Shown in pieces: positions 8,906 through 51,275 of a stretch of 64,000 nucleotides of DNA. Below the pieces are notes generated by a model that did no database searches, was not told the origin of the DNA, and saw only the letters and a list, made by a program, of their open reading frames with translations. The stretch covers positions 511 to 64,510 of the forward strand of contig JAVVFV010000003.1 in the NCBI GenBank assembly GCA_039889305.1. The letters are read 5' to 3'. Positions within the stretch are counted from its first letter, which is position 1. Every line of letters begins with the position of its first letter. This DNA comes from Candidatus Zestomicrobium tamdykulense. GTDB lineage: Archaea; Thermoproteota; Thermoprotei_A; Sulfolobales; NBVN01. A program made the translations under genes and the position numbers.

Positions 8906-10138
8906 TTGATGGTGTTTAATATGATATCACCTGTTCTTAACTACAGGGGTGTCATTGAAGAAATCTCTGGTGAGATCGCCTTCCAATATATATCTCGTGC
9001 TAAGGAGCTGGCTTCAAAAGGCTTTAGCGTGATATCGTTCGGGGTTGGTCAGCCTGACATTCCTACCCCACCACATATAATTGAGGAGGGTAAGAAAGCT
9101 CTTGACTTGAGATATACAGGCTACACTGAAACTGAAGGCATTAAGGAATTGAGAGAGTCGGTTGCTGAGTACTTAAACACTAGGTACGGTAGTGATGTCA
9201 GACCTGACGAAGTATTGATTACTATGGGAACGAAAGGTGCTGCTTACTTAGCTATGGCTGCTTACGTAAGACCTAATGATGAAGTCATAGTTACTGACCC
9301 AACATATCCAGTATACTCTGAGTTGCCTAAATTCTTCGGTGCGAGACCTGTTTACGTACCTTTAAAGTGGTTAGGTAGTGAAGAAGGCTTTGCACTTGAT
9401 CTCAACGCTATCCATGAATCAATAACTAAGAAGACTAGAGGAATCGCTATAGTAAACCCACATAACCCTACTGGTGCTGTCTTTAGTAGAAGAGAAATCG
9501 AGGGATTGATGGATCTTGCCAGAGATTACAAACTCCTCATATTTGCTGACGAGATATACGATAATTTCCTTTACGAGGACGCTGATTTTAAATCATTCAT
9601 GAGTTTTCCTGACTGGAGAGACTATATTCTTTACTGTAACGGTTTTTCGAAGACGTTCTCTATGACTGGCTGGAGACTCGGTTACTTAGTGGCGAGGAGA
9701 GAAGTCGCCAAGCTACTTATCAAGCTAGCTGTGAATACGTGGTCTTGCCCACCCTCAATCGCTCAGAAGGCAGGTATAACAGCTCTTAAAGGAGATTGGA
9801 CCCCTGTTAAGGAAATGGTGAGGTTATTTAATAAAAGAAGACTAACTCTCTACAACGAGTTAAAGAAAGTAAAGGGCTTTGAGGTCTGGAGAGGTAAGGG
9901 TGCCTTCTACTTATTCCCTAGGGTAGCTAAGCTGCTTGACTCAATAGGCCTTGACGTTGAGGCATTCGTTAACAAGCTAATAGACGAGAAATACGTTGTG
10001 ACTCTTCCCGGGACAGCCTTCCCGAGAGACTTCGGTAAGAACTATATCAGATTTAGTTACGCTGTAGATGAAGAGAAAATAATTGAGGGTGTTAGAAGGA
10101 TAAAAGAGCTTGTGGAGGAAATAACAGCGAAGACTTAA
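8906..10138 (+). CDS. PLP-dependent class I/II aminotransferase (aspartate aminotransferase-like)
   Basis: GVGQPD, NPHNPTG, DEIY, PLP lysine in FSKTFSMTGWRLG, GAFYLF and PGTAF. Confidence 0.92.
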   Translation: MMVFNMISPVLNYRGVIEEISGEIAFQYISRAKELASKGFSVISFGVGQPDIPTPPHIIEEGKKALDLRYTGYTETEGIKELRESVAEYLNTRYGSDVRPDEVLITMGTKGAAYLAMAAYVRPNDEVIVTDPTYPVYSELPKFFGARPVYVPLKWLGSEEGFALDLNAIHESITKKTRGIAIVNPHNPTGAVFSRREIEGLMDLARDYKLLIFADEIYDNFLYEDADFKSFMSFPDWRDYILYCNGFSKTFSMTGWRLGYLVARREVAKLLIKLAVNTWSCPPSIAQKAGITALKGDWTPVKEMVRLFNKRRLTLYNELKKVKGFEVWRGKGAFYLFPRVAKLLDSIGLDVEAFVNKLIDEKYVVTLPGTAFPRDFGKNYIRFSYAVDEEKIIEGVRRIKELVEEITAKT

Positions 10139-10343
10139 ACTTACCGCATAACCAAGCAACCTTAATGTAAGTGGTTAAGCGTAATTAATTTCTTCCTACA
10201 CTTATCTTAGCCTTCTTTAGCGTCAAGATTTACTAAGTCATGAAGACTACAAACTTCATTGTTTTGAATATGAGTGTTCTAAAATTGGAGAACAGTAAAA
10301 CATAAAATATAATAAAATATTTAGCGTGAGAAATTATGTTGTA

Positions 10344-11774
10344 CTATTTCTTTGTCTCACCTACTTCAAAGATGTACCTAGTGTAGAAGTCTTTAATAAG
10401 TCTGATGGCAACCGGCATTAAGTACGCTACTGCTACTAAGTTCGGTATGGCCATTAAACCATTCATAGTGTCTGAGAAGTCCCAGAATACCGCGAAGAGT
10501 TCTGGAGATATTGCTGCAGGGATTATTGGGACGATCCACATAAACCTCCATATCCATTTCAAGGGTTTCTCAGGCAGTTTAAGTGTCTTGTTCAAGAAGT
10601 ATAGCCAGTTAACCTCACCGTACCATTCCCAGCTCAGGAGTGTTGTAAATGCGAATAATCCTAAACCTAAACCAAGAACAATTGGTGCGTATATCCCGTA
10701 AGCTCTGTGGAAGGTCTCCATAGCTAGTGCTGCCCCGCTTAACTTAGGTCTCTCTATGTATGTTCTAGCCACTACATTAGCTACGCCGGTTACACTACAT
10801 ATGACGAGAGTATCCATGAATACTTCGAAAATGCCGTACATGGCTGCCCTACCCGGGTGGTCTATAGTCATGTAGGCGTATAGGTTTGGTGCGCTGCCTA
10901 AACCTGCCTCATTAGAGAATAATCCCCTGGCGAAGCCAAACCTTATCGCTGAGTAAACTACCCAGCCTGAGAGGCCTCCTGCCGCAGCCTGCGGAGTGAA
11001 TGCGTAAGTGAATATCTCTCTTATTGCTAACCCGAAATTGCCGGCATACATAACCCATATACCAACCCCGAATATTATGTACCAGGTAGCCATGAAGGGT
11101 ACCAAGTAGTTAGCAACGTCGGCAATCCTTCTAACACCACCAAGAACCACTAGCGCAGTAAAAATTGCCATTACCACACCTACAGCAAGTCTAAACGTGA
11201 AGACATCAAATTCGTAATGAGTCGCAATATACTCAGCCGCTAAAGCTACGTTATTAGCCTGAACCATGTTACCGATGCCGTAAGCTGCTATGAACGCAAA
11301 TATAGCGAAGAGTACGGCGAGCCCGGGCCCGACAACCGGCACTAACTTAATATAGTATGGTGTGCCTCCCTCAACCCTTCCATCCGGGAGAACTCTACGG
11401 GACCACACACCCAGGGTTGCCTCAAATCCTTTTAGACCCATACCAAGTATTCCGCATATCCACATCCAGAATAACGCACCAGCACCACCTAAGTTTAGAG
11501 CTGTCGAGACACCAGCTATGTTACCTACGCCAACCGTAGCACCCATCACAGCAAACCATATAGCGAGTGGTTTGGCTTCACCTTTACCTCTCTCACCTTT
11601 ATACCACATATTCTTAAGCACTATACCGAATCTCCTAATTTGATAGAACATTGTATAGATGCCTACTGCTAACCCACTTCCTGCAAGAATGATGATAGCA
11701 GGCAAACCCCATACTAGCCCATTAACTAAGTACATGAAGTCTATTAATGACTGAAGAGGTTCCACTAATGGCAC
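10344..11774 (-). CDS. Sodium:alanine/glycine symporter (AGCS family)
   Basis: ATVGVGNIAGV, GGAGALFWMW, GIGNMVQAN, RGLFSNEAGLGSAP, FEVFMDTLVIC and MAIPNL. Confidence 0.95.
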   Translation of the reverse strand: MPLVEPLQSLIDFMYLVNGLVWGLPAIIILAGSGLAVGIYTMFYQIRRFGIVLKNMWYKGERGKGEAKPLAIWFAVMGATVGVGNIAGVSTALNLGGAGALFWMWICGILGMGLKGFEATLGVWSRRVLPDGRVEGGTPYYIKLVPVVGPGLAVLFAIFAFIAAYGIGNMVQANNVALAAEYIATHYEFDVFTFRLAVGVVMAIFTALVVLGGVRRIADVANYLVPFMATWYIIFGVGIWVMYAGNFGLAIREIFTYAFTPQAAAGGLSGWVVYSAIRFGFARGLFSNEAGLGSAPNLYAYMTIDHPGRAAMYGIFEVFMDTLVICSVTGVANVVARTYIERPKLSGAALAMETFHRAYGIYAPIVLGLGLGLFAFTTLLSWEWYGEVNWLYFLNKTLKLPEKPLKWIWRFMWIVPIIPAAISPELFAVFWDFSDTMNGLMAIPNLVAVAYLMPVAIRLIKDFYTRYIFEVGETKK

Positions 11775-11807
11775 CTCAATAAAATATTATATTTATGAGG
11801 TGATTTT

Positions 11808-12047
11808 ATGACGGAATTTGAGGTTCATTCAAAAGATAAAGACATAGTGATTATGTTATGGATTATCGGCATATTGGTTGTAAGTTTACTCACGATGACT
11901 GTCGCTTGTAGCGAGAATATTAAAGACGTTATTAGGGACGTAGGAATACATATTGGGACTGTTTTAATAGTAATACTCTTAGGAGTTGCTGCATTGTTTA
12001 TAGGAAGGGGTAGAGTCGAGAGAATTAGTTTATGGAAATACACGTAA
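11808..12047 (+). CDS. Small two-TM membrane protein, unknown function
   Basis: GAGGTGA RBS 4 nt upstream of ATG. The 79 aa contain two hydrophobic segments. Confidence 0.55.
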   Translation: MTEFEVHSKDKDIVIMLWIIGILVVSLLTMTVACSENIKDVIRDVGIHIGTVLIVILLGVAALFIGRGRVERISLWKYT

Positions 12048-12197
12048 AAATAAAGTTATATTTTTACATATTTTCAACCTGATTTAACAGATTCTGACAT
12101 TCTTTCCATAAAATGAGTTAATTTATTGAATTAATTGTTTCCTGACTGTTTAGATAAAATATTAAAGCTCTTGTAAGTTTTAGCAATGGGGTGTTTA

Positions 12198-13582
12198 ATG
12201 ACATCGATTCATACACAAATCCCGACTACTAAAAAATTACAGAAAGCCTTAAGGTTGTTAGCAAGTATAAGGAGTATGTCTCTTCCAGTCAAGCTTTCAA
12301 GTACTTTCCGATAGCGATTTCGAAAGCTAAGAATGCTAAGCTATGGGATCTCGACGGTAATGAGTATATTGATTTCCTGTCAAGTGCTGCTACATATAAT
12401 GTTGGTCATAGTAATGAGAAAGTAATCAATGCTGTGAAGGAGCACCTAGATAAGTTCATTCATTACTGTCTTTACCTATATCACGAGCCTGTGGTAGAGC
12501 TCGCAGAGCTTCTTGTAAGAATAACGCCCGGAAATTACGAGAAGAAAGTAGTTATTGGGTTAAGTGGGGGAGACGCTAATGATACAGCCTTAAAAGCAGC
12601 GTTAGTATTCACGCGGAGACCGAATATAGCTTCGTTCACTTATTCTTACCACGGCACTACCGCACTCGATATAGCTGTGAGCGGGTCTTTTAGTCCTGAG
12701 TTAAGAAGCGTTATTCCGGTGCACGGTGTCTACTTTCTAGAATACCCAGATACATACAGATGTGCCGGAGGTATTGAGGATCCTGTTGAGTGCGGAGAAT
12801 ACTACCTAGATAAGGTAGAGAAGTTCTTTAAGAGAAACGTGGCTGGTGAGTCATTCGCGGCTTTAGTTATGGAGCCTGTGCAAGGTGATGGAGGAGTTCT
12901 CATACCACCTGAGAACTTCATGAAAGGTATTAGGAGGATAACTGAGGAGTATGGGATGATCCTTATAGACGATGAAGTACAGACAGGGTTGGGTAGGACT
13001 GGAAAGCTGTTCGCTATAGAGCACTACAGTATCGTACCGGATCTAGTAGTTCTAGGTAAGGCTCTTGGTGGGGGGATGCCGGTCTCGGCGATCGTTGGTA
13101 GAAAGGACGTGCTTGAGTCAGCACCTCCACAGACATTCTTTGCTACCTCAGCGGCGCATGCAGCCTCGGTTGCTGGGTCTATATCTGCTGTAAAGTATGT
13201 TCTAGAAAATAACCTACCTGATAGGGCTCAACATCTAGGTACCTACATGTTAAGAAGACTGAACGAGCTTAAGGAGAAATATGAAATAGTTGGGGATGTT
13301 AGAGGCGTCGGGTTAATGATTGGTGTCGATATAGTTAAGAACAAGAAAACTAAAGAACCAGACAGGATTACTGCTCTAAAAATCATATGGAGAGCTTGGG
13401 AGAGAGGACTTATCATGATGACTTACGGTAAATACGGTAATGTGTTAAGGATAGCTCCTCCACTAACAATACCTAAAGAAGACCTTGAGAAAGGGCTTGA
13501 AATAATAGAGAACTCGATACGTGACGTAATTCGCGGCGTCGTACCTGATGAGGTAATAAAATATATGACGGCATGGGAGTGA
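12198..13582 (+). pseudogene. Class III PLP enzyme resembling the Thermococcales broad-specificity amino-acid racemase; one frameshift near the 5' end
   Basis: The track ORF (12434) lacks the N-terminus. The same frame is open back to 12233 (KITESLK...FKYFPIAI...WDLDGNEYIDFLSSAA.YNVGH) and is closed by TAA at 12230. An ATG at 12198 with a GGGGTG RBS lies in another frame and joins at the A6 run 12231-12236. Core motifs: EPVQGDGG, DEVQTG.GRTG, PLP lysine in LGKALGGG, GNVLRIAPPL. Confidence 0.8.
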
Positions 13583-13851
13583 CTTAAACTCGCTTAAAGA
13601 TCAACAACATTTTTACGAAATGAAACACTATTCTTAGAGTGAAGAATAGTCAATAGAGCCACAATACTAATCTGCCTAGATTTGGCGTATTAAGTGATAA
13701 TAATATGATGACGCTCTAAATAATGGTGTAAAACTCTTCCAGCAATTAAGGTCAGATATGGTTTCTGCTGAGTCATTGCTAATCCTTAGCTTAGAGAAGC
13801 ATTTGTCTAATGTTTTAGGATTAAGGCTAGAAAACAAGCTTCGTAATATAT

Positions 13852-15177
13852 ATGCTTTCTGACGTAATTTTATTTGGGTCTATGATGAGCACTACTTCAA
13901 GATACTGTTTAGCTTTTTGGTTTGTTTTATTTATAGGTCTTATCATGGTTTCCGCAATAACGCTCATAGCATTACCACAGGGTAGGGTAGGCGTTGTTGC
14001 CGAGCTAACATCAACCATTGACGGGGGTGCTGTTGAGGTTGTTTCTCGTGCAGTGAGTGAGGCGGTTGGCAGGTCCTCTGTGTTAATACTGTATATAGAT
14101 AGTTATGGGGGGTATCTAACGGCAACAGATTCTATAATAAAGATAGTTATGGAGTCTGGTGTGGTGACTTACGTTTATATACCTCCCGGAGGTAAGGCAG
14201 CTTCTGCAGGGTCTTTAATAGCTTTGTTGGGTAGGAAGATCTTCATGGGTGAGGCGTCAACCATAGGTGCTGCGCAACCAAGCCCCTCAGACGAGAAAAC
14301 AATTAATTATGTTGTGGGTAGGTTTAGGTCTCTAGCTACCATAGCTTTCAAAGGTAATGAGACTTTAGTAAGAATTGCTGAGGAATTCGTAACTAAGAAT
14401 AGAGTTCTGAGCGCTGCTGAAGCTGTAGTGCTAGGTTTCGCAGAACCAGCTAACAGCTTAGAGGAAGTAAGACAAAAATTAGGACTTGACGAATTAGTTG
14501 TGGTTGGTTATACAGCTTGGAATCACTTAATATCTGTGTTCTCAGTACCCATAGTAAGTTCAATAGCTCTCATAGTAGGTATTGCTTTAATATTTATTGA
14601 ATTTGTTCAAGCAGGTTTTCAAGGGTACGCAATTGCTGGTATTGTCTTGATATTGCTTTCATTATACTCTATGTGGGTAGTTCCTGTAAGCCTCTTTGCT
14701 CTCTCACTACTCATAATGGGGTTAATTCTCCTTCTCATAGAGATACTGACTCCAGGATTCGGTGCTTTCGGAATAACCGGCCTAATACTCATGTTTGTTG
14801 GAGCTTACGAAACAATAACTAGAGAGTCTTTCGGAATTCCATCCATACTACCACTAGTTGTTGCAGCAGGTTTCGCGATGTTGGGAGGTTTGATGATTTA
14901 CGTTGGGTATGAGGCCGGGAAAGTCAGGAGACTTAAGACTAAGACGCTTCGTGAGAAACTAATTGGTGAGGTTGGGATAAGTAAAACCAGATTAACGCGT
15001 GAGACGCCGGGCGTGGTTCACGTGCTTGGTGAGGACTGGACAGCATACTCTGTTGACGAAGTAATAGAGCCTGGGACCAAGGTTAAAGTAACTGATGTTA
15101 AGGGTCTAACACTTTACGTCTCTAAAATCGGTGAATTCACTAATGAGTCAGGAAGGTCTAGATTACAGGAGAGTTAG
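13852..15177 (+). CDS. NfeD family membrane-bound serine protease (stomatin operon partner); likely start ATG 13882
   Basis: IDSYGG, KAASAG (catalytic Ser), STIGAAQP, TM block with EILTPGFG, and C-terminal OB domain GEDWTA. Confidence 0.9.
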   Translation: MLSDVILFGSMMSTTSRYCLAFWFVLFIGLIMVSAITLIALPQGRVGVVAELTSTIDGGAVEVVSRAVSEAVGRSSVLILYIDSYGGYLTATDSIIKIVMESGVVTYVYIPPGGKAASAGSLIALLGRKIFMGEASTIGAAQPSPSDEKTINYVVGRFRSLATIAFKGNETLVRIAEEFVTKNRVLSAAEAVVLGFAEPANSLEEVRQKLGLDELVVVGYTAWNHLISVFSVPIVSSIALIVGIALIFIEFVQAGFQGYAIAGIVLILLSLYSMWVVPVSLFALSLLIMGLILLLIEILTPGFGAFGITGLILMFVGAYETITRESFGIPSILPLVVAAGFAMLGGLMIYVGYEAGKVRRLKTKTLREKLIGEVGISKTRLTRETPGVVHVLGEDWTAYSVDEVIEPGTKVKVTDVKGLTLYVSKIGEFTNESGRSRLQES

Positions 15178-15886
15178 AGAAGAATTAAGAAAAAAGATAT
15201 GGGATTTGATGGAAACAACAAACATAGCTAGATTCCCAAGACCAGTACATGGTAGAATACCAAATTTTGTTGGTGCCGAACAATCCGCGTTAAACCTGCT
15301 TAAACACTACTTAATTAAGACCTCCAAAGTAGTTAAAGTAAATCCTGACGCACCACAGAGAGCTGTACGTGAGTTAATGCTTCATACACACAAAAAAGTT
15401 GTGATGCCAACACCAAGAATATCTGAAGGTTTCTTATTGTTAGATCCTGACAAAATACCTACGAACGCTTACGACGTAGCCTCAACGATACAAGGAGCTT
15501 TCAGGTACGGTGAGCACGTAGACCCGCAGAACTTACCAACTATAGACTTAATAGTGGCGGGATCCGTCGTTGTTGACGTATTCGGTGGGAGGTTAGGAAA
15601 AGGAGAAGGATACTCAGAACTCGAGTACGGGATTCTCGTAGAGTGCAAGAAAATCTCTCCTGATATCCCAATAATGACAACTGTTCACGATATTCAGGTA
15701 GTGACGGAGAGAATACCGCTAGAACCGTGGGACTTCACGGTCGACTGGATTATAACACCAACAAAAAACATTCAAGCTAGAGGTCCTAAAATAAGACCTA
15801 AAGGAATTTTATGGGAATACCTAGAAAAAGATAAGTTAGCGAAAATACCTGTGTTAGATACGTTACTAAGACGAGGAGGTTGCTAG
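15131..15886 (+). CDS. 5-formyltetrahydrofolate cyclo-ligase family protein (COG0212); likely start ATG 15143
   Basis: RFPRPVHGRIPNFVGA, KVNPDAPQ, MPTPR, GRLGKGEGYSELEY, TTVHDIQ and DFTVDWIITP. Confidence 0.88.
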   Translation: MNSLMSQEGLDYRRVREELRKKIWDLMETTNIARFPRPVHGRIPNFVGAEQSALNLLKHYLIKTSKVVKVNPDAPQRAVRELMLHTHKKVVMPTPRISEGFLLLDPDKIPTNAYDVASTIQGAFRYGEHVDPQNLPTIDLIVAGSVVVDVFGGRLGKGEGYSELEYGILVECKKISPDIPIMTTVHDIQVVTERIPLEPWDFTVDWIITPTKNIQARGPKIRPKGILWEYLEKDKLAKIPVLDTLLRRGGC

Positions 15887-15974
15887 AAGATCAACTAGCA
15901 CTAAAAGCAGCGAAACACACTAGTCTGTTCCCCCTAAGTAAAAGGATGACTAAAACTCGTAATACTTTTGAAAG

Positions 15975-17048
15975 TCATTGCTGGTTTTGTTTTATGAAGT
16001 CATCATTTCTTGGGAGTGCGAATCTTAAGAGAGCTACAATTCCTCCAAACCCTCTTAACTTAATAGCTAGCGGGGATTCTGCTGGAACTATCCTAATATT
16101 ACCTCCCTTCTCTTCAACCATATTAAGGATTTTCTCCACACGTACATATTCGTCAGAAGTAAGCAGGTCCTCGTTGACGAGAAGAGTGTCTACGGCGTTA
16201 TTGAGCGCTGCAAACTCAACGTCTTTTAAACCATAAGCAACTCTTTCAGGATTTGACATAAGTAATTTCAGGAATTTTTCTAGTATTTCCTCACCCTCAA
16301 CAATTACGTACTCTTGCAGTAGGTCTTTCACGGAGTCTCTCTTAAGTAGTTCATGTATTCCTGCTCTACCACCTATAGAAACAGAGTCCGCGAATATCTT
16401 TAGCTTATTCCCAACACGTGTTTTAAGCTTTTTAACTAAAGCTTCCCTAAGAACTGTAGGAGAACCGACTATTATGAAATCTATTTTCTCGGATTCTAAA
16501 TACTTAACTATTTCTTCAGTGATTTGAGTAGCTAAGTCCTCTATGGATGATTCGTCATCGCTTCTTATGCCAGGAAGTGTTAAATCATTTAAGAACCTCA
16601 CGCCTTGATTATAGAGAAGAGCTAAAGAAACCTCATCAAAATCAGCGGCTACTAGCAATGCTCTAAACCTCCTTCTATTCGAGAGAGACTCTAATCTCTT
16701 CAGTAATGCTTGACTTATTGATTCTTTAAATAGAGTTATTTCATTCCCCACGTCAACGTTTAGTGTGTGGTAAGAACCTCTTAATCCGTACTCTTCAGGT
16801 CCCTCAACTATGACTCCGTGTATTCTTAACCTACTCGCGAATGGCTGGAAATAAAGCTTCTCGACCTTAATAGCTAGAATCATAGGTAGTCTCTTTTTAC
16901 CCTCGCCATCTATCTTCACATCTCTTAAAGTTTTAGCTACTACGACATCTCCTGCTTTAATAATATTTTTCAGTACCCACAAATCATCAACATCTTCAAC
17001 CCTGACCTTTACCCAACCTTTTTTCAGATCCTTATCAATTACTTTCAA
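15975..17048 (-). CDS. pelA: Ribosome rescue factor aPelota (Dom34)
   Basis: DDLWVL..II..GD, RLRIHG.I, G.YHTL, eRF1-like domains and the C-terminal GFGGIVALLRF. Confidence 0.93.
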   Translation of the reverse strand: MKVIDKDLKKGWVKVRVEDVDDLWVLKNIIKAGDVVVAKTLRDVKIDGEGKKRLPMILAIKVEKLYFQPFASRLRIHGVIVEGPEEYGLRGSYHTLNVDVGNEITLFKESISQALLKRLESLSNRRRFRALLVAADFDEVSLALLYNQGVRFLNDLTLPGIRSDDESSIEDLATQITEEIVKYLESEKIDFIIVGSPTVLREALVKKLKTRVGNKLKIFADSVSIGGRAGIHELLKRDSVKDLLQEYVIVEGEEILEKFLKLLMSNPERVAYGLKDVEFAALNNAVDTLLVNEDLLTSDEYVRVEKILNMVEEKGGNIRIVPAESPLAIKLRGFGGIVALLRFALPRNDDFIKQNQQ

Positions 17049-19352: not shown

Positions 19353-19820
19353 ATACCTCAGCAGCGAGATTCTGAATCTTTAAGAAAGTTTCTTGATGAC
19401 TTGGGCGTGTGGTATCGTTTTTATGAGTTTCCTGAACATACCATGACTGTAGAAGCATCTGTTAAACAGTTAGGTGTGAGTCCAGATAAAATCATTAAGA
19501 CGTTAGTAGTTGTTAATGAGAGAAACGAACCGTTCGTGGCGATTATACCTGGTGATAAAAAACTTGATTTAAACAAATTTTCTGCTATTCTTGGATGTAA
19601 AGTAAGGATGGCTAAAGCTAAAGAAGTGAGGGACTTAACAGGGTATCCTGTTGGTGCTTTACCACCAGTTGGGCACGAGATAACAACATACGTAGATAGG
19701 GATGTATTAAAACATGATAGAGTAGTAGGTGGAGGTGGCAGTACTCACACCTTAGTAGAACTAGAGACGAGAGATTTAATCAGACTTACTAAAGCTATGA
19801 TTAGCGATATTACTGAGTGA
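19353..19820 (+). CDS. ybaK: YbaK/ProX aminoacyl-tRNA deacylase
   Basis: IIKTLVV, IPGDKKLDL, TGYPVGALPP and VGGGG motifs. The conserved-looking N-terminus (ESLRKFLDDLG) precedes the track TTG at 19401. The first RBS-compatible codon is ATA at 19353. Confidence 0.85.
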   Translation: MPQQRDSESLRKFLDDLGVWYRFYEFPEHTMTVEASVKQLGVSPDKIIKTLVVVNERNEPFVAIIPGDKKLDLNKFSAILGCKVRMAKAKEVRDLTGYPVGALPPVGHEITTYVDRDVLKHDRVVGGGGSTHTLVELETRDLIRLTKAMISDITE

Positions 19821-24941: not shown

Positions 24942-25880
24942 GTGATTAATGTAGTAGTTTTGGATAAGGGGGTTTCCTTCGGACCTTCCCCAACCAACAC
25001 TGAGCTCAGCAGGCTGAGTAAGGAGTATACGCATGTGGTTGTTCTAACATATCCTCACGAGGTTAAGTATGATGTAAATTCACTAAAAAACTTCGGTATC
25101 GAGATATTGGAGGTTCCGGTTCCTGACTTTAGATCCCCACCATTACTTGACCTAGTATTCATAGTTGAGTGGATTTTAGATAAGGTTGCTGCGGGCGGTA
25201 GGGTATATGTTCACTGTGCTGGAGGTTATGGGAGATCTGCGACAGTAGCTGCGGCATATCTTATTCGTAGGTATAGGAAGAACTGGTTAGAATCCATGGA
25301 TCGAGTAAGGAAACTTAGGAAAGGGTCTCTAGAATCTGTTGAGCAGCTCTCTGTATTAAGAGCTTATGATGTCCTACTAAGGTACTTGAGCCCTGTTGAG
25401 CTTCTGAAGTCATTTAAATGCACAGATAAGCAAACTAAAAACCACGTATCGAAGATACTACAAATAGGTCTCAAAAATTCTGAGACCATAGCATCACTCA
25501 CTAAAATACCTCAAAACTTACTTATTCAAGAACTATTTAATAGCGTTAATCACTACCTCAATTCTCAAAAACTAGAATGTATTTTTACGAGACTCCCAAT
25601 ACTATGTAACGTAAATAAACCAGTAAGTGATGATTTAGTGAGTCTCCTTAAAACATATGCTGAATTATCTATAGCTACTGATGAGCCAAGAAACCAATGT
25701 GTTGAGGATCTAGAAATAAGACATAGGGAAAACAATTTAGTAGAAGTAGTACTCTACTGTAATATTAATCTCATGTCTTCATGTGGTGTGGTTAAGAAGC
25801 GTGTGGAGAACTTACTATCTAAAATGTGTGAAATGCTTAACTGTAGTGTTAAGACTGTGATGCTGGACTTCCTCTCCTAA
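24942..25880 (+). CDS. Dual-specificity protein phosphatase with a C-terminal extension
   Basis: VPDFRSP (general-acid loop), P-loop VHCAGGYGRS and ESVEQ, followed by about 160 extra residues. Confidence 0.82.
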   Translation: MINVVVLDKGVSFGPSPTNTELSRLSKEYTHVVVLTYPHEVKYDVNSLKNFGIEILEVPVPDFRSPPLLDLVFIVEWILDKVAAGGRVYVHCAGGYGRSATVAAAYLIRRYRKNWLESMDRVRKLRKGSLESVEQLSVLRAYDVLLRYLSPVELLKSFKCTDKQTKNHVSKILQIGLKNSETIASLTKIPQNLLIQELFNSVNHYLNSQKLECIFTRLPILCNVNKPVSDDLVSLLKTYAELSIATDEPRNQCVEDLEIRHRENNLVEVVLYCNINLMSSCGVVKKRVENLLSKMCEMLNCSVKTVMLDFLS

Positions 25881-27312
25881 GCCCTTCAGCTCCATTAAGG
25901 AATGAATAAGCCTTAAATCCTTTCTCACGCAGTTTTAAAGCTTCTACGTAGCTTCTATTCCCTTTATCACAGTATAGGATTAATGTTTTATCTCTTAACT
26001 CCTCTAAGTTGATTTTCTCGTAATGTAGAGCTCCCGGATAGTGCCATTCAAGATATTCATCTAAATCACGAAGATCTATTACTACAGCATCATCAGGTAT
26101 GTAATCAATAACGATAGACTTATCAGGTACTACATCATCAAGACTAGAAGCTCTAACTTCGAAAACCTTAAGGGTATTCAGTACTTTAGTCATTAGGTCT
26201 TCAGGAAGCTTCATGAATTCACTACGTAATTCTTCAACAGACACTTTAGTTCTGACACGTGAAGGAGCTATTGAACAAGGCTCACCTACCATAGATGATG
26301 TCTCGTAAGTACCTATCCTTCTAGCAAGACTAACTATCTCTTCTTTATCAAGACCTATTAGAGGTCTTAAGACAGGAAGCTGTAAGCCAGATACTAACTG
26401 AGCAGCGCTTAAGTTAACTAACGTCTGACTTGATGTTTGGCCAATAGACTCACCCGTTACCACAGCATCATAGTTTCCTGCAGCTATTTTAGACGCTAAG
26501 TAATACATTAACGTTTTCAGAACTACCTGTCTAAACTCCCACCTCACGTTAGTCCTAATGTAGTTTAGTGCGTGAGTTAAGTCAATTACATAAAATCTTG
26601 GGTTGTGACCATAAAACCAATTATAGGTGAGTGTCTTAGCTACTGTGAAAGCTAAGCGAGTTGCGCTGGGAGAACCCATAAAGAAGTGAAGAAAATCTAT
26701 TTTGATCCCCCTCTTAGCGACGAGCCATGTAGCTACGGGCGAATCTATCCCTCCAGAAAACAATGAGAGTGCATGTCCTTCAGTACCTATGGGTAGTCCT
26801 CCTACACCACTAATTAATTTCTTATAGAAGTATGCTGTGGGGCCCCTAATCTCTACATGAATCTCGACCTCAGGCTTCTCGAGATCAACTCCTGCTGAGT
26901 AAGGTTTCAGGAAAGCACCTAATTCTCTAGCCACATCAAGTGATGTAAACTCGTGAGTACCGAATCTCTTAACTCTAACAGCAAACTTCTTATTAGTAAC
27001 TAGGCTTACTGCTTTTTCACCAACCTTACTAACAAGGTCTTTTAGATCATTAAAGTTTATTAAATCAACCTCACCTATCTTCATCACACCGAAAACTCTA
27101 CTCAGGTCTTCTAATACGTCTATATCAGACTCCAGGAATATTTTAGCGTTGATAATTTTGAAACTATAATTGGTGGAACCATACTCTTGAAGAACTTCAC
27201 TTATGTTCTTAATTAAGACTCTATAGAATTTTGGTCTACTGCGCCAGGACTTAAAAGGGAGTTCCCCGGAAACAGTTATTAGGTATTTATACGTCATTAT
27301 CTTTATTCCCAA
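25849..27312 (-). CDS. thiI: tRNA 4-thiouridine sulfurtransferase ThiI (THUMP + PP-loop + rhodanese); likely start ATG 27297
   Basis: SGEL...S, THUMP domain, GVGGLP.G, SGGIDS, TGESIGQ.SSQ, RPLIG.DK and rhodanese YCDKGNRS. Confidence 0.93.
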   Translation of the reverse strand: MGIKIMTYKYLITVSGELPFKSWRSRPKFYRVLIKNISEVLQEYGSTNYSFKIINAKIFLESDIDVLEDLSRVFGVMKIGEVDLINFNDLKDLVSKVGEKAVSLVTNKKFAVRVKRFGTHEFTSLDVARELGAFLKPYSAGVDLEKPEVEIHVEIRGPTAYFYKKLISGVGGLPIGTEGHALSLFSGGIDSPVATWLVAKRGIKIDFLHFFMGSPSATRLAFTVAKTLTYNWFYGHNPRFYVIDLTHALNYIRTNVRWEFRQVVLKTLMYYLASKIAAGNYDAVVTGESIGQTSSQTLVNLSAAQLVSGLQLPVLRPLIGLDKEEIVSLARRIGTYETSSMVGEPCSIAPSRVRTKVSVEELRSEFMKLPEDLMTKVLNTLKVFEVRASSLDDVVPDKSIVIDYIPDDAVVIDLRDLDEYLEWHYPGALHYEKINLEELRDKTLILYCDKGNRSYVEALKLREKGFKAYSFLNGAEGLRRGSPASQS

Positions 27313-31317: not shown

Positions 31318-31506
31318 TCCCTCACTAACAACACGTAACTCTCTACGCGAAAAAGATTATTCTCTAGGTGATTCAGGAAGTTGCTTCCATCACCACCCAG
31401 AACTACTGTGAAAATTAATCCATCACCTAAAACTAAAATAAATCAAAAACTTATAAAACTCACAATACGATATTGCGCTTGAGTTTATATTAATTAGCGG
31501 GTCTTA

Positions 31507-31565
31507 CACGCTCAGTGCTCGAGTCCCCAATCATTCTTCAGCGGAGTTCAACTCATCATAGCATG
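31507..31565 (-). ncRNA. C/D-box methylation guide sRNA
   Basis: On the minus strand: C box ATGATGA (31559-31553), 11-nt guide, D' CTGA (31541-31538), C' AATGATT (31535-31529), 13-nt guide and D CTGA (31515-31512). A 5-bp terminal stem CAUGC/GCGUG closes it. It is intergenic. Confidence 0.88.
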
Positions 31566-31621
31566 AAGTTATTTCTTTTTAAAATTAATATTTGTTAAAG
31601 ATTAAGCTAACTTATGCGGGT

Positions 31622-32950
31622 TTATATTCCGGCTATCTTAACTCCCCTAAACTTCAGGGAGGGTGCTGAGGCCCCATATTCTGTCCTTAGATCTTTTCCT
31701 ACAGCTTCTATGCGGTGTTTAAGTAACTCGTAAATATTCGCAGTGATTACTGCACCTTTAATAGGCTTAATTATCCTTCCTTTACGAATTAGATAAGCGT
31801 GTGTTATAGTAGCGTTTAAGTGACCGCTTACTGGGTTAGAAAGCCATTCACCTATAGTATTCATCACTAATACACCTTCTTTCGTCTCACTAATTAACTC
31901 GTCTAGTAGTGCCTCGCCAGACATTAGGCGTAGGTGATGAGGTTGTGGTGCAGGAACTGTTGAGAATGTTCTTGAAGCATTGCCTGTAGATTCCTTACCT
32001 TCTTTAAAGGCTGTGTAGGTGTCGTAGAGATATGTTTTAAGAATGCCTTTCTCGAAAACAACAGTGTTTCTTGTTGGGTGACCCTCATCATCGAAAGGTT
32101 TAGAACCTAGTGCTTCAGGCGAAGCCCCTAAATCTACTATACTCACGGATTCAGAAACTACTTCCTCTTCTAGTTTCCCACTAAGTGGAGATCTGCCTTG
32201 CTGGACATTCAGAGCTGAAATCGCTGGAGCAATCATAACAGGTAGTATAGAACTCACTACATGATTGAGTAAGATCAGTTCGTAAGTACCGCTTGGAAGT
32301 CCCTCCGCGTTAAGAAATTCCTTGGCTTTACTTCCTGCCTCAAAACCAACATCCCTGGCTCTTAGCTTTCTAAAACTTCTCTGTACATCGTGTTCGTCGT
32401 ACGTTCCCGTCTTACCCCCTTCATCAACTCTAGCATAGACGTAAAGACTTGACACAGTTTCAGCCCTGGTTAGAGGACCTCCATAGCAGTTCATGTAAGT
32501 GATCTCTACAGACCTAGCTGACACAGCACCTCTAACAGGTCTTGCGTTCCAATATCCCTCCTTAACGGAGTCTAGAAGTTCCTTAGCCACATGACTCAAA
32601 TCCTCGGGTGTTGCGTACGCTGTATCTTTATCGAATAGGTTGTCTAATTGAGTTTGTGAAATCTTCTTATTCATGCTAACCCAGCCAGGGTCTGGAGAAC
32701 TAACTCTCGCGATAGATATAGCTGAACTTAAAGTTTTCTCAATACCTTCGTCACTTAGGTCTTGAGTACCCACGAAAGCAACAGACTTGTTAATAGTTAC
32801 TCTTAAACCTAGTGAGGAGAGCTTAGTGGATTTAGAAGCTTCAATAACGTCTGATAAAGTGAGTGAGGTTTCAGAGACTCTCGCTAAGTATACTTCCACC
32901 TCAGAAACTCCTAAACTAATAGCTCTTCTAACTATTTTTTCTAGATCCAT
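31622..32950 (-). CDS. pmbA: PmbA/TldE family protein (pair 1)
   Basis: EVEVY, SPLSGKL...V, PFDDEG.P, LYDTYTA...STGNA. No HExxxH motif. Confidence 0.88.
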   Translation of the reverse strand: MDLEKIVRRAISLGVSEVEVYLARVSETSLTLSDVIEASKSTKLSSLGLRVTINKSVAFVGTQDLSDEGIEKTLSSAISIARVSSPDPGWVSMNKKISQTQLDNLFDKDTAYATPEDLSHVAKELLDSVKEGYWNARPVRGAVSARSVEITYMNCYGGPLTRAETVSSLYVYARVDEGGKTGTYDEHDVQRSFRKLRARDVGFEAGSKAKEFLNAEGLPSGTYELILLNHVVSSILPVMIAPAISALNVQQGRSPLSGKLEEEVVSESVSIVDLGASPEALGSKPFDDEGHPTRNTVVFEKGILKTYLYDTYTAFKEGKESTGNASRTFSTVPAPQPHHLRLMSGEALLDELISETKEGVLVMNTIGEWLSNPVSGHLNATITHAYLIRKGRIIKPIKGAVITANIYELLKHRIEAVGKDLRTEYGASAPSLKFRGVKIAGI

Positions 32951-32952
32951 AA

Positions 32953-34341
32953 TTAATCACCACCCACTATTAGCTCCTTAACAAGGATATGAGGTCCTCC
33001 ATCACCTACCCTCACCATTTGAAAGTCTTTACCGCATCCCCCGAAAACTGACGTAGTTATTCTTAAGACTTTACCTACAGCCTCTACACCTCTCAAAGTA
33101 TCAAGTATAGAACCAGACACAACGACTCCTCTTACAAGTCCTCCTAACTCACCATTCCTTATGATTCTTGAAGGTCCTGCTGAGAAAGTGAAAGTGCCTG
33201 CACCAGTATCTACCTGACCTCCACTACTTCCTCTACCAACTAGGTATAAGCCCTCCTTAACTTCTCTAATCATTTCCTCAAGACTCCAGTCACCTGGCAT
33301 CATGAAGAAGTTTGTTTGTCTTACTATAGGTATGTGTGAGAAGTCTTGAGCCCTTCCGTTACCTGATACTGGTAGGTTGAGTCGTGCTGCACTTTCTCTG
33401 TTGGTTAGGAAAGACTTAAGCAATCCCTTCTCAACTACTACGGTCCTTGTCTTGAAGCTGCCTTCATCATCAAATGGAACATAATAACCTCCATCAACAA
33501 CCCCGTCATCGACTATGGTTACTAATGGTGAAGCTACTTCCTCGCCGAGTCTGTTCTTGAGTATTGAGGTACCTGAAGCTACTAAGTCACCTTCTGTTGC
33601 GTGCCCGAAAGCTTCGTGAAGTATTAACCCAACCATCTCAGGATCAGCAATAACTTTCATTTTCCCTGCGGGTGGTAATGGGGCTTTAACTGCTTCTTTA
33701 GCAAGTTTACTGACTTCTCGAGTGAATTCTTCCCAGTCTTTCTTCTCAGCGAACTCCCATCCTGCTACTGAGGATTCTTGGTTAGAAACTCTCTCCATAG
33801 AACCTGACTCAACAGCAACACTAAGGTGTGCTACTCCGATCAGGTAGGACTCATACTCTAGCTCTGCACCATCAGTACTTACCACATATCTCCAGTCATG
33901 CTGAATACCAAGCCTACTCACAGAAGATTTTATTCCTTCAATACTTAATCCTGCCTTATTAGCTCTACTTACTAACTCTCTTTTTGTTTCGTCCGAGACG
34001 TCTTCCGGTCTAATTTTCCATGAGGATGCATACCTGCCCCTCTCAGGCTTTCTCTCACCCAGAGTTCCTACCTTCTTAGAAACACGTGCTGCTGTGATAG
34101 CTCTAGAAACAGTCTCCCTAATACTGTCTCTACTTAACTCGTTAGTAGAGGAAAAACCAAAACTACCGTTGTAGAGAACCCTAATACCTAGTCCTGCCCT
34201 GTAAGTTTTCGAGAACTCTCTTAAAACACCATTATCGACAGTAACTAACTCGTACGAGATTAACTGCGTCCTAACTTCAGCGTATGAAGCTCCTAGAACC
34301 TCAGCTATTCTCAACGCTTCCAGAGCTACATCCTTTAACAC
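32953..34341 (-). CDS. tldD: TldD family metalloprotease (pair 1)
   Basis: LHEAFGH..EGD, FDDEG, GNGRA, RQTN and the C-terminal CGKD...VG.GGPH. Confidence 0.92.
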   Translation of the reverse strand: MLKDVALEALRIAEVLGASYAEVRTQLISYELVTVDNGVLREFSKTYRAGLGIRVLYNGSFGFSSTNELSRDSIRETVSRAITAARVSKKVGTLGERKPERGRYASSWKIRPEDVSDETKRELVSRANKAGLSIEGIKSSVSRLGIQHDWRYVVSTDGAELEYESYLIGVAHLSVAVESGSMERVSNQESSVAGWEFAEKKDWEEFTREVSKLAKEAVKAPLPPAGKMKVIADPEMVGLILHEAFGHATEGDLVASGTSILKNRLGEEVASPLVTIVDDGVVDGGYYVPFDDEGSFKTRTVVVEKGLLKSFLTNRESAARLNLPVSGNGRAQDFSHIPIVRQTNFFMMPGDWSLEEMIREVKEGLYLVGRGSSGGQVDTGAGTFTFSAGPSRIIRNGELGGLVRGVVVSGSILDTLRGVEAVGKVLRITTSVFGGCGKDFQMVRVGDGGPHILVKELIVGGD

Positions 34342-47424: not shown

Positions 47425-48867
47425 TTGAGTTTTAGTGAGGAACTCTTAACTAGGTTGATTGATGAGGGGGCCGCTGCTGGGGCTTCTTACGTGGAGGTAC
47501 GTTACCAAAACGATTACGGTTCCTCAGTTTCTATGAGGAATGGTAAGGTGTTAGGGGTTAGGTCCTTTAAAGAGGAGGGTGTTGGGATTAGAGTCTTAGC
47601 TAACGGGTCTCTTGGGTTTGCAGCAACAAACGACTTAAGTAGGGAAGGTCTTAGTAAGGCTCTTGAGTATGCTATTAGTAGAGCTAGGTCGGTAGCTCAA
47701 CTGAGGAGGGGCCCTATTCAATTTACTGAGGAGAAGGTTGGTAGAGCTTCTTACGAGGTTGTGCCAAAAATAAAATTAGAGGACGTGAGTATGGAGGGTT
47801 TAATGGGTTTAGGTAGGGAGGTATTTAAAGTCTTAACAGAGTCTGTTAGCCAGGTTAAGCTTCCGGTCTGTGTATTCAGTGCTGAAACTCATACTCAAGA
47901 AAAACTAATTATTACGTCAGACGGCGCTTACGCCAGGTCTAGAATTCCCAGAATGTATGTCTCAGCTAATCTAGTACTTTTCCACCCACAGAAAGGCACC
48001 CTGCAAAGAATGAAAGAATTCGGTAGTTCTGGTGGCGGTGAATTACTTGATGCGTGGAGGCCTATTGATGTTTTGGTGGAAGAAGCTAAGAAGCTTGAGG
48101 TAGTCTTGGTAAGCGGTGTTGAGCCTCCTAAAGAACCTGTTGATGTGGTTGTAGGGTCTGAGATAGTAGGGTTGTTAGTTCATGAATCAGCTGGACATCC
48201 TATGGAGGCCGACAGAATATTAGGGCGTGAAGCTGCGCAAGCCGGGGAATCGTATGTTAAGCGGGAAATGATCGGTAAATTTAGGATAGGTAATGAGTTA
48301 GCTACCGTGATTGAGGACCCCACAATACCTGGTAGTAATGGCTTCTACCTATACGATGATGAAGGAGTGCCTGCAAGACCTAGATATCTCTACAAGGAAG
48401 GCATAATAAACGAAGCTCTCCATAACAGACACACAGCAAATATCTTCGGCGTTAAGAGTAATGCTGCAGCCAGAGCGATGAATTACGCGTCAGAACCCAT
48501 AATACGTATGAGTAACACTTACTTCAAACCAGGAACAATGAGTTTCGATGAACTCATAGAAGACATTAGTACTGGTGTCTTTATTAAGTCCTACATGGAG
48601 TGGAACATCGATGACATAAGATGGAATCAAAGATACGTGGGTTTAGAAGCTTACGTTATAAGGAACGGTGAGTTAGTTGAACCTATTAGAAACCCTGTAC
48701 TAGAGATAACTACTCAGGGATTCTACAGTAACATAGTAGCTGCTGATAAAGAATTAAAGTTCTATCCTGGTACTTGTGGTAAGGGGGAGCCTTCTCAGGG
48801 GGTTCCTGTATGGTTTGGTGGTCCAAATGTTAGGATCTCCAAGATTAGGCTGGGGGTGACGGCGTGA
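47425..48867 (+). CDS. tldD: TldD family metalloprotease (pair 2)
   Basis: VHESAGHPMEADR, YDDEG, RMSNT and TCGKGEP.Q..PVW.GGP. Confidence 0.92.
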   Translation: MSFSEELLTRLIDEGAAAGASYVEVRYQNDYGSSVSMRNGKVLGVRSFKEEGVGIRVLANGSLGFAATNDLSREGLSKALEYAISRARSVAQLRRGPIQFTEEKVGRASYEVVPKIKLEDVSMEGLMGLGREVFKVLTESVSQVKLPVCVFSAETHTQEKLIITSDGAYARSRIPRMYVSANLVLFHPQKGTLQRMKEFGSSGGGELLDAWRPIDVLVEEAKKLEVVLVSGVEPPKEPVDVVVGSEIVGLLVHESAGHPMEADRILGREAAQAGESYVKREMIGKFRIGNELATVIEDPTIPGSNGFYLYDDEGVPARPRYLYKEGIINEALHNRHTANIFGVKSNAAARAMNYASEPIIRMSNTYFKPGTMSFDELIEDISTGVFIKSYMEWNIDDIRWNQRYVGLEAYVIRNGELVEPIRNPVLEITTQGFYSNIVAADKELKFYPGTCGKGEPSQGVPVWFGGPNVRISKIRLGVTA

Positions 48868-50198
48868 TGACCAAGATTATTGAGTTAGGGAGAGAAGTAG
48901 TTAATAAGTTGAGAGGAAACTACGATGATGTTGCTGTTGTTATAAAGGTTCATGATAGAGTTATGGTTAAGCTCTGGAATACTGAGCCATCAGTAGCTCA
49001 GAGTTGGTTAACTACGAATGTAGCTTTATTACTAACAAAAGCAAGAAAGGTTTTAATACTAGAATTCTCTGTTGGTAAGCCTGAGGAAGTTCTTAGGGCT
49101 GTTGAGAGAATCTCAAGCGTTGTTGAGAGGGTTGAGGAGTCAGAGCTTTACGCTCCCTTACCGGAGCCGCAGGAAGTGAAGCTGGTTGATGGTTCTTTTG
49201 ACACGAACGTAATTAACGCGATGAAAGACCCGAGCACATTGACTAAATTAATAGTTGATGCTGCTTTATCTGAAGGAGCTGAGAGAGTTGCGGGCACATT
49301 AGTTTTAAGTAGTGATGAGAGAACACTAATTACTAGTAAAGGGTTTGAGGGTAGTGAGAAGAAAACATTAATTGAGGCGTACCTAAGAGCATTTAAGAAC
49401 GAGTTTAGCGGTCACTGGGCTTATGGATCAACACACGTGAGAGAAGAAGAGATTAAGGAGATCGGCAGGAAGGCCGGTATGTATGCATCAATAACTAGTA
49501 ATAAGGTAGACCTACAACCAGGCAAATACAATGTAGTCCTCTCTCCACTCGTGGTCGGTAATCTAATGAATTACGTGTCTTTCATGTCGTCAGCACTAGC
49601 AGTATTAATGGGTTATTCAATGTTCATGAAATTCAAACCTGGAGATAAGGTAGCCTCAGAAAAACTCACGTTAATAGACGCACCGAGAGATCCCACCCTA
49701 CCCAACGTAGCGTCTTTCGATGATGAGGGAGTACCTACATACAATAAACCCATAATAGAGAAAGGAGTATTCCGTAACCTACTCCATAATTCAGGTACAG
49801 CAACCAAACTTGGAGTTAAATCAACAGGTAATGCTGGTTGGATAATGCCTAGTCCCTGGAACCTGCATATGGAGCCTGGAGACCTCAGGGAAGAAGAGTT
49901 AATTAGTGAGTTAAGAAATGGAGTAGTAATAACAAATAATTGGTATACCAGATTACAGAATTACGTTGAAGGAGTCTTCTCCACGGTTGCACGTGACGCG
50001 GCGTTACTAGTTAAAGACGGAGAGATAGTAGGTAATGTTGGTAGAGTAAGAATAGCAGCAAGCTTTCCAGAACTACTCAATAGTATTGAGGGATTAACCA
50101 GACAAACATACGATATCATGTGGTGGGAGGTCCGAACACCTATTAGAGCACCCTACGTGCTGGCGAGAAATGTTAACTTAACTAAACCTTACATATAA
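48864..50198 (+). CDS. pmbA: PmbA/TldE family protein (pair 2)
   Basis: FDDEG.PT, STGNAG and NNWYTR. No HExxxH. Overlaps tldD by 4 nt. Confidence 0.88.
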   Translation: MMTKIIELGREVVNKLRGNYDDVAVVIKVHDRVMVKLWNTEPSVAQSWLTTNVALLLTKARKVLILEFSVGKPEEVLRAVERISSVVERVEESELYAPLPEPQEVKLVDGSFDTNVINAMKDPSTLTKLIVDAALSEGAERVAGTLVLSSDERTLITSKGFEGSEKKTLIEAYLRAFKNEFSGHWAYGSTHVREEEIKEIGRKAGMYASITSNKVDLQPGKYNVVLSPLVVGNLMNYVSFMSSALAVLMGYSMFMKFKPGDKVASEKLTLIDAPRDPTLPNVASFDDEGVPTYNKPIIEKGVFRNLLHNSGTATKLGVKSTGNAGWIMPSPWNLHMEPGDLREEELISELRNGVVITNNWYTRLQNYVEGVFSTVARDAALLVKDGEIVGNVGRVRIAASFPELLNSIEGLTRQTYDIMWWEVRTPIRAPYVLARNVNLTKPYI

Positions 50199-50204
50199 TT
50201 TTTC

Positions 50205-51275
50205 TCAGAACTCGGTTGCTCCATACTCACCCGAGAATTCATCACCTACTTCCTCAGTTTTCCAAGCTTCAGGACATCCCTTACCATATCTTATTACAGG
50301 ACCTGCAAGCCTCGTTAGTAACGCGACTCTCGACGGCACAGAATACGACGCTACTTTATAGCTCGTCTCAGCAGCTAGTCTCTCTGCGAAGTCTAAGACC
50401 TCACTCATCGAGGGCATGTTATCCCTGCCTAACCTCTCGGTAGAGCCGCCAACATGCATGTAAGCTTTCGGTTCTACGTAGGTTGGTGATGCTTTATCTA
50501 TTAGCTTAGCGAAACCTCTGACATCTTTTTCACTCATGTTAAATCCTTTAATTAACGTTATTCTTAGGACCGTAGGTGATGAGAAAGACGGCAACATCTC
50601 TAAGGTCTCTAAAGTCTTCTCCCAACCCCTACTCACTAGAGGTCTATCAAAGAAATCATACATTTCTTTATTCCAGGCTTCTAAAGACACGTATAGTTGG
50701 GTAGGTTCCTCCTCAAGTGATGCTAGAACTTCAGGTCTTATACCCCTAGTCACTAAAAACGTAGTTAGCCCCTTACCATGAAACACCTTAATTAACTCAC
50801 CTAATCTGGGATACAGTGTGGGCTCACCAGTAAGTGAGATAGCTACGTGTACAGGGTTCATCGCTTCTTCCCACATCTTTTTAGGGGCTATGTTTCTGTA
50901 ACCACTGACTGTTCTTCGATGCTCTTCTATAGCTAAATCAGCTATTACTTCAGGATCATCTACACTAGGTAGCCTCATTAAGTCTTCATCCCTTAACCCG
51001 AGATCTTGCGGTCTCACTCTCCAGCAGTGGAGGCACGCGTTCCAGCACCAGAGAGTAGCTGGGGTGAACTGTATACACCTGTGTGATTCAATTCCGTAAA
51101 ACTTACACTTATAACAAAACCTACCCTGAGTTAAGGCGTTATGAACCCACAAACACTTCTTAACAGCTGAGTGAGAACCTACTAAGTGGTATTTCTGTTT
51201 TTTCAGTCTACTCATAACTAGGGTGAGAGGCTCTACTTTCTCAGCATCGAGAGGTAGTCTTACGGTTCTCCTTAT
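50205..51275 (-). CDS. taw1: 4-demethylwyosine synthase Taw1 (TYW1), radical SAM
   Basis: HSAVKKCLW, CYKCKFYGIESHRC, CWNACLHCWR, AISLTGEP and EPKAYM. The frame is open upstream of the track ATG (51215) to an ATA at 51275 behind GGTGA. Confidence 0.92.
   Translation of the reverse strand: MRRTVRLPLDAEKVEPLTLVMSRLKKQKYHLVGSHSAVKKCLWVHNALTQGRFCYKCKFYGIESHRCIQFTPATLWCWNACLHCWRVRPQDLGLRDEDLMRLPSVDDPEVIADLAIEEHRRTVSGYRNIAPKKMWEEAMNPVHVAISLTGEPTLYPRLGELIKVFHGKGLTTFLVTRGIRPEVLASLEEEPTQLYVSLEAWNKEMYDFFDRPLVSRGWEKTLETLEMLPSFSSPTVLRITLIKGFNMSEKDVRGFAKLIDKASPTYVEPKAYMHVGGSTERLGRDNMPSMSEVLDFAERLAAETSYKVASYSVPSRVALLTRLAGPVIRYGKGCPEAWKTEEVGDEFSGEYGATEF

Follow-up and report, generated by a model that had tools for sequence, protein, structure and literature searches.

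A predicted box C/D sRNA gene with tRNA T-arm-like guides in Candidatus Zestomicrobium tamdykulense and its candidate targets

C/D sRNAs number in the dozens to hundreds in hyperthermophilic archaea, and most metagenome-assembled genomes (MAGs) come without annotated ones. One more C/D sRNA gene is routine, and the interest of such a gene lies in its target. A short locus in a contig of Candidatus Zestomicrobium tamdykulense raises exactly this question. The original prediction, made from the sequence, described it as an unannotated C/D-box sRNA with two guides which both resemble complements of the tRNA T arm, the D guide pointing to C56 and the D' guide to G53. Two points were addressed: whether the locus encodes a functional guide RNA, and on which RNA its guides act. 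The window, i.e. the whole stretch of 64 kb that was analysed, has a G+C content of about 40% and contains ordinary archaeal housekeeping genes.

Architecture of the sRNA gene

The predicted box C/D sRNA gene measures about 59 nt (31507..31565, minus strand) and was delimited by its sequence, an architecture scan, a conserved locus and sub-threshold Rfam similarity. Read on the minus strand, the sRNA starts with CAUGC-U (31565-31560), followed by the C box AUGAUGA (31553..31559; RUGAUGA), the D' guide GUUGAACUCCG of 11 nt (31542..31552), the D' box CUGA (31538..31541), the D'/C' spacer AGA of 3 nt (31535..31537), the C' box AUGAUUG (31528..31534), the D guide GGGACUCGAGCA (31516..31527), the D box CUGA (31512..31515) and the 3' end GCGUG (31511-31507). 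A C box of the form RUGAUGA and a D box CUGA, internal D' and C' boxes around a short spacer, guides of about 10-13 nt and a length of about 50-70 nt, all features by which C/D sRNAs are recognised, are thus present together. The four boxes were all found as predicted, except that the C' box is degenerate, with UGAUUG for UGAUGA, a form that is identical in the homologues. The 13 nt originally given for the D guide count the final G of the C' box as well; without it the guide has 12 nt, and it reaches 13 only if this last C' base also pairs.

A regular expression that describes the complete box architecture returned one site in the 64-kb window and no match in any of 200 first-order Markov shuffles of the window. 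Across the window, no Rfam family was matched at its gathering score. Six archaeal C/D families (sR17, sR14, sR60, sR3, sR1 and sR44) could be aligned end to end with positions 31510-31563 (minus strand) below threshold, scoring 14.6-23.7 bits against gathering thresholds of 36-50 bits (best 23.7 against 36). This likeness lies in the boxes and not in the guides, which indicates that the sRNA belongs to none of the six families. The D guide (31516-31527, minus strand) holds the palindrome CUCGAG. In the minimum free energy fold, CUCC from the 3' part of the D' guide pairs with GGGG where the C' box meets the D guide; in stability the fold does not exceed shuffled sequences (z = −0.9).

Conservation, locus and transcription

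The sRNA is preceded on the same strand by a PmbA/TldD-family gene (31622..32950, minus strand; Pfam PF19289/PF01523), which served as synteny anchor and ends with its stop codon 57 nt before the sRNA. A ThiS-like gene, also on the minus strand, follows about 190 nt downstream. The nearest PmbA homologues (77-90% identity), with the sRNA immediately 3' of them, belong to MAGs labelled Zestosphaera, Desulfurococcaceae or Sulfolobales, and the fragment of valyl-tRNA synthetase (ValRS) in the window shares 91% identity with its counterpart in a Zestosphaera sp. MAG. Copies of the sRNA directly downstream of PmbA were found in four MAG loci (L001, L002, L003 and L011) and six metagenome contigs (L017-L020, L023 and L025). 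Together with the window they comprise nine distinct sequences (eight further ones) from Zestosphaera-like Desulfurococcaceae MAGs and hot-spring metagenomes. The window contains two separate TldD/PmbA pairs, at 47425-50198 (plus strand) and 31622-34341 (minus strand), and the sRNA follows the latter.

The alignment of the nine sequences shows no variation from UGAUGA of the C box to the GC that follows the D box, except at the R of the C' box and within the spacer of 3 nt. Both guides, both CUGA boxes and UGAUUG of the C' box are accordingly the same in all homologues; the first base of the C box is A or G. The spacer, which reads AAA, AAG or GAG in the homologues, is the variable stretch inside the sRNA, as expected for an unconstrained k-loop spacer. 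Mean pairwise identity over the nine loci amounts to 95% in the core, 64% in the upstream flank and 51% in the downstream flank. The 5-bp terminal stem of the original prediction is present in the window, with conservation restricted to the inner 3 bp; the fourth pair is A-U, G-C or a mismatch among the homologues. The covariation score of the stem was reached by 86 of 500 shuffles and is not significant, as expected for so short a stem.

A TATA-like element, AAATATTAATTT (31582..31593, minus strand), lies upstream of the C box, its centre about 28 nt away. The corresponding block, AAATATTA(A/G)TTT, has 11 of its 12 bases invariant in 9/9 homologues, in a surrounding flank that is 64% identical. 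Because the element sits at the usual archaeal distance between TATA box and start, the sRNA gene probably has its own promoter and, judging by the sequence, is probably transcribed independently. In metatranscriptome data, one unitig of 151 nt was found for the relative L025, which spans the body of the sRNA and continues for about 105 nt beyond the D box; it is a weak sign of transcription of the sRNA, and not one of a discrete small RNA.

Could the site be non-functional, either a motif arisen by chance or an element conserved as part of the 3'-UTR or terminator of the PmbA gene? Its place 57 nt past a same-strand stop codon and the sole RNA unitig, which runs through it, would suit an element of the latter kind. 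Yet the architecture is absent from all 200 shuffles, conservation tracks the layout of boxes and guides with variable bases only in the spacer and at the R positions, the locus has a conserved TATA-like box of its own, and the fold stability is unremarkable, unlike that of a terminator. A non-functional element is thus very improbable, and the stretch 31507..31565 almost certainly encodes a functional C/D sRNA. It is a genuine, previously unlisted and otherwise ordinary archaeal box C/D methylation-guide RNA outside Rfam; architecture and the nine conserved loci bear out the original identification.

A second conserved A/T-rich block lies between the sRNA and the ThiS-like gene (31443-31506, minus strand). 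It reads TTTTATAAG in the window and has a counterpart, GATTTAAGAC, in L002, L003, L011, L020 and L025; it is probably the promoter of the ThiS-like gene. A search of viral contigs gave no match to the sRNA and none to a crenarchaeal 16S signature.

The D guide and tRNA C56

In a box C/D sRNP, as established for the family, L7Ae binds the C/D k-turn and the C'/D' k-loop, after which Nop5 and fibrillarin assemble on the sRNA; the sRNA described here would be expected to do the same. Each guide would then pair with its substrate, and fibrillarin would 2'-O-methylate the nucleotide opposite the fifth guide base upstream of the D or D' box (N+5).

The perfect target of the D guide is 5'-UGCUCGAGUCCC(C), in which N+5 is the C directly before GAG in GCUCGAG. 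Placed in the register of a tRNA T arm, the guide has C56 at N+5, provided that a G.U pair is formed at U54 and that the loop is UUCGAGU. The perfect D target agrees with seven of eight T-loop consensus constraints at positions 53-61 in a fixed register, for which the chance is estimated at about 1 in 1000. For the D' guide the perfect target is 5'-CGGAGUUCAAC, with N+5 at the G before UUCAAC. Given the odds for the D target and the presence of GUUCAA in the D' target, the T-loop likeness of both guides is real. The original prediction was right that both guides are antisense to T-loop-like sequences, and its N+5 arithmetic (D to C56, D' to G53, given tRNA T-arm targets) is correct as well.

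With a UUCGAGU T arm, the D guide forms 9-10 consecutive Watson-Crick pairs that span N+5, and the duplex reaches −24.2 kcal/mol, against −26.8 kcal/mol for the perfect complement. With a UUCAAAU T arm the value is −12.4 kcal/mol. All three Thermoprotei tRNAs that were read (tRNA-Pro and tRNA-Gly in L010, tRNA-Leu in L034) have the T loop UUCAAAU. The original prediction had looked to a tRNA carrying GUUCGAGUCCC; no such tRNA was among these three. Reads placed on the tRNA-Pro of L010 showed the UUCAAAU T arm to be hugely abundant in the hot-spring runs in which the lineage occurs.

The closest known relative of the D guide is that of PCAsR35 from Pyrobaculum calidifontis (Dennis et al. 2015). 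The guide of PCAsR35, GGGGAUUUGAACG directly followed by CUGA, is antisense to GUUCAAAUCCCC and has C56 at N+5. The guide of the present sRNA, GGGGACUCGAGCA followed by CUGA, is identical to it at 10 of 13 positions and stands in the same register, antisense to the T loop and the 3' strand of the T stem. The two differ in the loop they recognise: the PCAsR35 guide, with A opposite U54, is Watson-Crick complementary to the commonest T loop, UUCAAAU, whereas the guide described here, with an invariant G facing the near-universal U54, is suited to UUCGAGU alone. This invariant G suggests that the true target has a C at that position (GCUC), unlike a tRNA T loop. The D' guide of PCAsR35, CAGGCAGACGG, is unrelated to the D' guide here; the likeness is confined to the D guide and the boxes. 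Moreover, PCAsR35 belongs to the Thermoproteaceae and the present sRNA to the Desulfurococcaceae, and it is the absence of trm56 that defines the Pyrobaculum case. From the sequences, the likeness of the two D guides may have come about by convergence as easily as by homology.

A P. aerophilum C/D sRNP that guides Cm56 was reportedly described by Renalier and colleagues in 2005. Reviews attribute Cm56 to Trm56 in archaea generally and to a C/D sRNP in P. aerophilum, in agreement with what the original prediction had put forward. As Trm56 is reported to be the general archaeal enzyme for Cm56 outside Pyrobaculum, a C56 guide would be redundant unless the lineage is without Trm56. A Pfam scan was carried out on 50 ORFs of the 64-kb window, namely 49 of its 62 ORFs of at least 100 aa and one ORF of 89 aa; among these 50, no match was found to Trm56 (PF01994/COG1303), fibrillarin, Nop5 or integrase. 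The window does encode ThiI (s4U8; 25849-27312, minus strand), a Taw1-like, wyosine-forming radical-SAM enzyme (50205-51215, minus strand), a free-standing aminoacyl-tRNA editing domain (19401-19820, plus strand) and ValRS (62946-64000, minus strand), which is cut by the window end.

Other T-arm guides have been predicted in the Pyrobaculum literature, for instance that for G51 by sR64. In the same genus, about 80% of the tRNA-targeting sRNAs have a target for one guide only, which makes a double T-arm guide unusual. A guide of TtesR113 from Thermoproteus tenax (supplement of Dennis et al. 2015) contains ACUUGAACCCGG, antisense to the T arm CCGGGUUCAAGU, so T-arm-like guides recur in sRNA sets of Thermoprotei.

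On balance we favour, with a probability of roughly 0.4 for all parts taken jointly, a genuine C/D sRNA whose D guide is directed at C56 in some tRNAs and whose D' guide is directed at a 23S hairpin or at G53. The D guide would act on a minority of tRNAs, those in which the T loop is UUCGAGU and the 3' T stem CCC(C), and the G.U pair at U54 would be tolerated. The D' guide would act on the G that directly precedes UUCAAC in a GG(A/G)GUUCAAC hairpin, its substrate being either a 23S hairpin (in the helix-68 region or in domain II, E. coli ~608-616) or G53 of a tRNA. We know of no report that documents Gm53, the product of the D' guide on a tRNA T arm. Taken by itself, guidance of Cm56 in tRNAs by the D guide is a tentative assignment with odds somewhat below even. 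If it holds, the switch from Trm56 to an RNA guide would have happened, or both would coexist, outside Pyrobaculum, which bears on how guide RNAs take over from stand-alone modification enzymes or back them up. A wider proposal appears rather unlikely: that the Zestosphaera-like Desulfurococcaceae are a second lineage, independent of Pyrobaculum, with a C/D sRNP acting on the tRNA T arm, which would make Cm56 in UUCGAGU tRNAs and possibly Gm53, perhaps within a loop-specific set of guides that replaces or supplements Trm56.

Candidate targets in rRNA and other RNAs

Neither the window nor the Zestosphaera-lineage loci (L001-L005, L011, L017-L020, L023 and L025) contain a tRNA or rRNA gene, and the contigs reached through ValRS homologues beyond the window end are short and without tRNA. 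rRNA targets were sought, with G.U pairs allowed, in the 16S and 23S alignments from the supplement of Dennis et al. (2015) and in 13 fetched rRNA loci (L026-L029 and L032-L040). These loci were reached through antisense 23S 'proteins', and none is tied to the Zestosphaera lineage. No perfect target for either guide occurs in the 16S and 23S rRNAs of Ignicoccus, Sulfolobus and Pyrobaculum or in the further Thermoprotei loci; perfect complements of at least 10 nt in rRNA, which the original prediction had named as an argument against tRNA, are absent from all related rRNAs scanned. In the same set no site better than 10/12 was found for the D guide, and 16S held no close site for either guide.

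In Desulfurococcales-type 23S rRNA, two GGGGUUCAAC hairpins match the D' guide with a quality similar to that of tRNA T arms. In the helix-68 region, the hairpin CGGGGUUCAAC of Ignicoccus, L027 and L032-L036 is matched at 11/11 positions (10 Watson-Crick pairs and one G.U). In domain II, the hairpin AGGGGUUCAAC (E. coli ~608-616) of Pyrobaculum, L032, L033 and L035 is matched at 10/11. The tRNA T arm CGGGGUUCAAA is also among the best partners of the D' guide in related RNAs. Of the T-arm reading in the original prediction, the register of the D guide, shared with PCAsR35, holds up; the G opposite U54 speaks against it, as does a D' guide that fits 23S hairpins equally well or better.

The best rRNA site of the D guide is always CGCUCGUG(U/C)CCC, aligned to E. 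coli 2394-2405. It is matched at 10/12 positions in Ignicoccus (CGCUCGUGUCCC) and at 9/12 elsewhere, with a scan background of 9/12, and has a U.U mismatch two positions off the target nucleotide. This site is covered by about 75 antisense ORFs, among which GHERSL (= GAACGCUCGUGNCC) is the reading of nearly all those of Ignicoccus-, Sulfolobus- and Pyrobaculum-like type; the variant needed for a perfect match to the D guide was seen in none of the roughly 75. With the site near-invariant across archaea, the lineage most likely shares the mismatch.

These matches permit another reading, in which both guides act on 23S rRNA, the D' guide on one of the GGGGUUCAAC hairpins and the D guide on the 5' strand of the E. 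coli 2394-2405 hairpin (GCUCGUGUCCC). The sRNA would be a long-range double guide or chaperone, and the T-arm likeness would reflect T-loop-like rRNA hairpins. Most archaeal guides target rRNA (in Pyrobaculum 56%, against 16% for tRNA), helices 68-71 of 23S are methylation hot spots, and sRNAs have been discussed as long-range double guides or folding chaperones (Dennis et al. 2015). The top match of the D guide is moreover the same site in every Thermoprotei 23S. IHOsR52, an expressed C/D sRNA of the Desulfurococcales species Ignicoccus hospitalis, has a D' guide, GACACGAGCGUG, complementary to 23S AACGCUCGUGUC, the best rRNA match of our D guide. The correspondence is partial: N+5 is offset by 2 nt, the guide concerned is D' and not D, and the other guide is unrelated. 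IHOsR52 pairs with the rRNA of its own species over 10 nt in Watson-Crick fashion; the D guide here was matched at 10/12, and to foreign rRNAs.

For the D' guide, PCAsR37 of Pyrobaculum and TtesR145 of Thermoproteus offer a comparable case. Their D' guides, directly after the C box, start with GUUGAACCC, antisense to GGGUUCAAC, as does GUUGAACUCCG here, and a P37 mark stands over the region of the domain II hairpin, at the end of the alignment block that contains it. The guides continue differently (CACGC...), and both sRNAs are longer, with atypical internal boxes and unrelated D guides.

Several observations tell against 23S as the target of both guides. The D site, at 9-10/12, is barely above background, its mismatch lies near the target nucleotide and, given how little the site varies, is probably shared by the lineage. 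The pairing of the D' guide with the helix-68 region places the G.U beside the target nucleotide and leaves only seven consecutive Watson-Crick pairs, against the nine usually taken as the criterion for a guide-target duplex. The D and D' sites are more than 500 nt apart. Metagenomes were also scanned for both perfect targets 10-30 nt apart, in the order D target then D' target (pattern GCTCGAGTCCC N{10,30} CGGAGTTCAA). This yielded six new copies of the sRNA gene, on its own antisense strand, and four chance matches, none of them in rRNA genes. We regard action of both guides on 23S as rather unlikely; if it is right, the locus is an example of target prediction being readily misled by T-arm likeness when no genome is at hand. 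In the E. coli operon, the best matches of the two guides lie at 23S positions 1105-1117 and 1135-1145, 30 nt apart, and were rejected since the archaeal counterparts, CACCCGCCGAGGC...GGUCGGGGCUCAAGCC, mismatch.

Alternatively, the target may be another RNA (5S rRNA, SRP RNA, RNase P RNA, a pre-rRNA spacer or an mRNA), or one or both guides may be orphans in an RNP that serves as a chaperone. Across seven archaea, roughly a third of the sRNAs are without an rRNA target, and Pyrobaculum has conserved families in which both guides are orphans. No perfect partner for either guide was present among the sequences examined, and invariant guide bases form G.U pairs with all candidates, as if a perfect partner had yet to be seen. 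In the D' guide this concerns the U at position 4, which forms a G.U with every rRNA or tRNA candidate and hints at a partner of the type CGGAG.... Within the window, mRNA targets were absent beyond the antisense strand of the sRNA gene itself, and a literature search for the guide sequences returned nothing relevant. Against such a target stands the T-loop signature of both guides (GUUCAA; G-UCGAGUC in the C56 register), which by our estimate would arise by chance in about 1 in 10^4 to 10^5 cases and thus points to tRNA or to T-loop-like rRNA hairpins. An RNA outside these two classes is accordingly doubtful, and the preferred reading remains a D guide for C56 in some tRNAs with a D' guide for a 23S hairpin or G53.

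The fetched rRNA loci gave some further observations. The search with antisense proteins returned three matches for the helix-68 ORF and 152 for the domain V ORF. At least 150 antisense translations of archaeal 23S (domains IV-V) are present in the protein collection (P0001-P0003 and P0084-P0203). PF27657 is matched by four of them and most have no Pfam match; as gene calls they are spurious, yet usable as handles for rRNA contigs. In the Thermoprotei MAG contig L028, a ValRS gene (386-2809) is located about 7 kb from an rRNA operon (about 9300-16700). If synteny holds, an rRNA operon could therefore adjoin the right end of the window, although the two ValRS are only 46% identical. L029 (CAZZLT010000016.1) carries a tRNA-Ala(UGC) in its 16S-23S spacer, has flanks of about 40% G+C and a 23S that is 76% identical to that of Ignicoccus. 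The tRNA-Ala in the spacer indicates that this contig is not from Thermoprotei, and with only 76% identity in 23S the operon is not crenarchaeal, though it matches the query ORF. Thermoprotei-type 23S genes in L026, L027, L028, L029, L034, L036 and L037 are interrupted by introns, several of which contain ORFs for LAGLIDADG homing endonucleases, up to three in L034.
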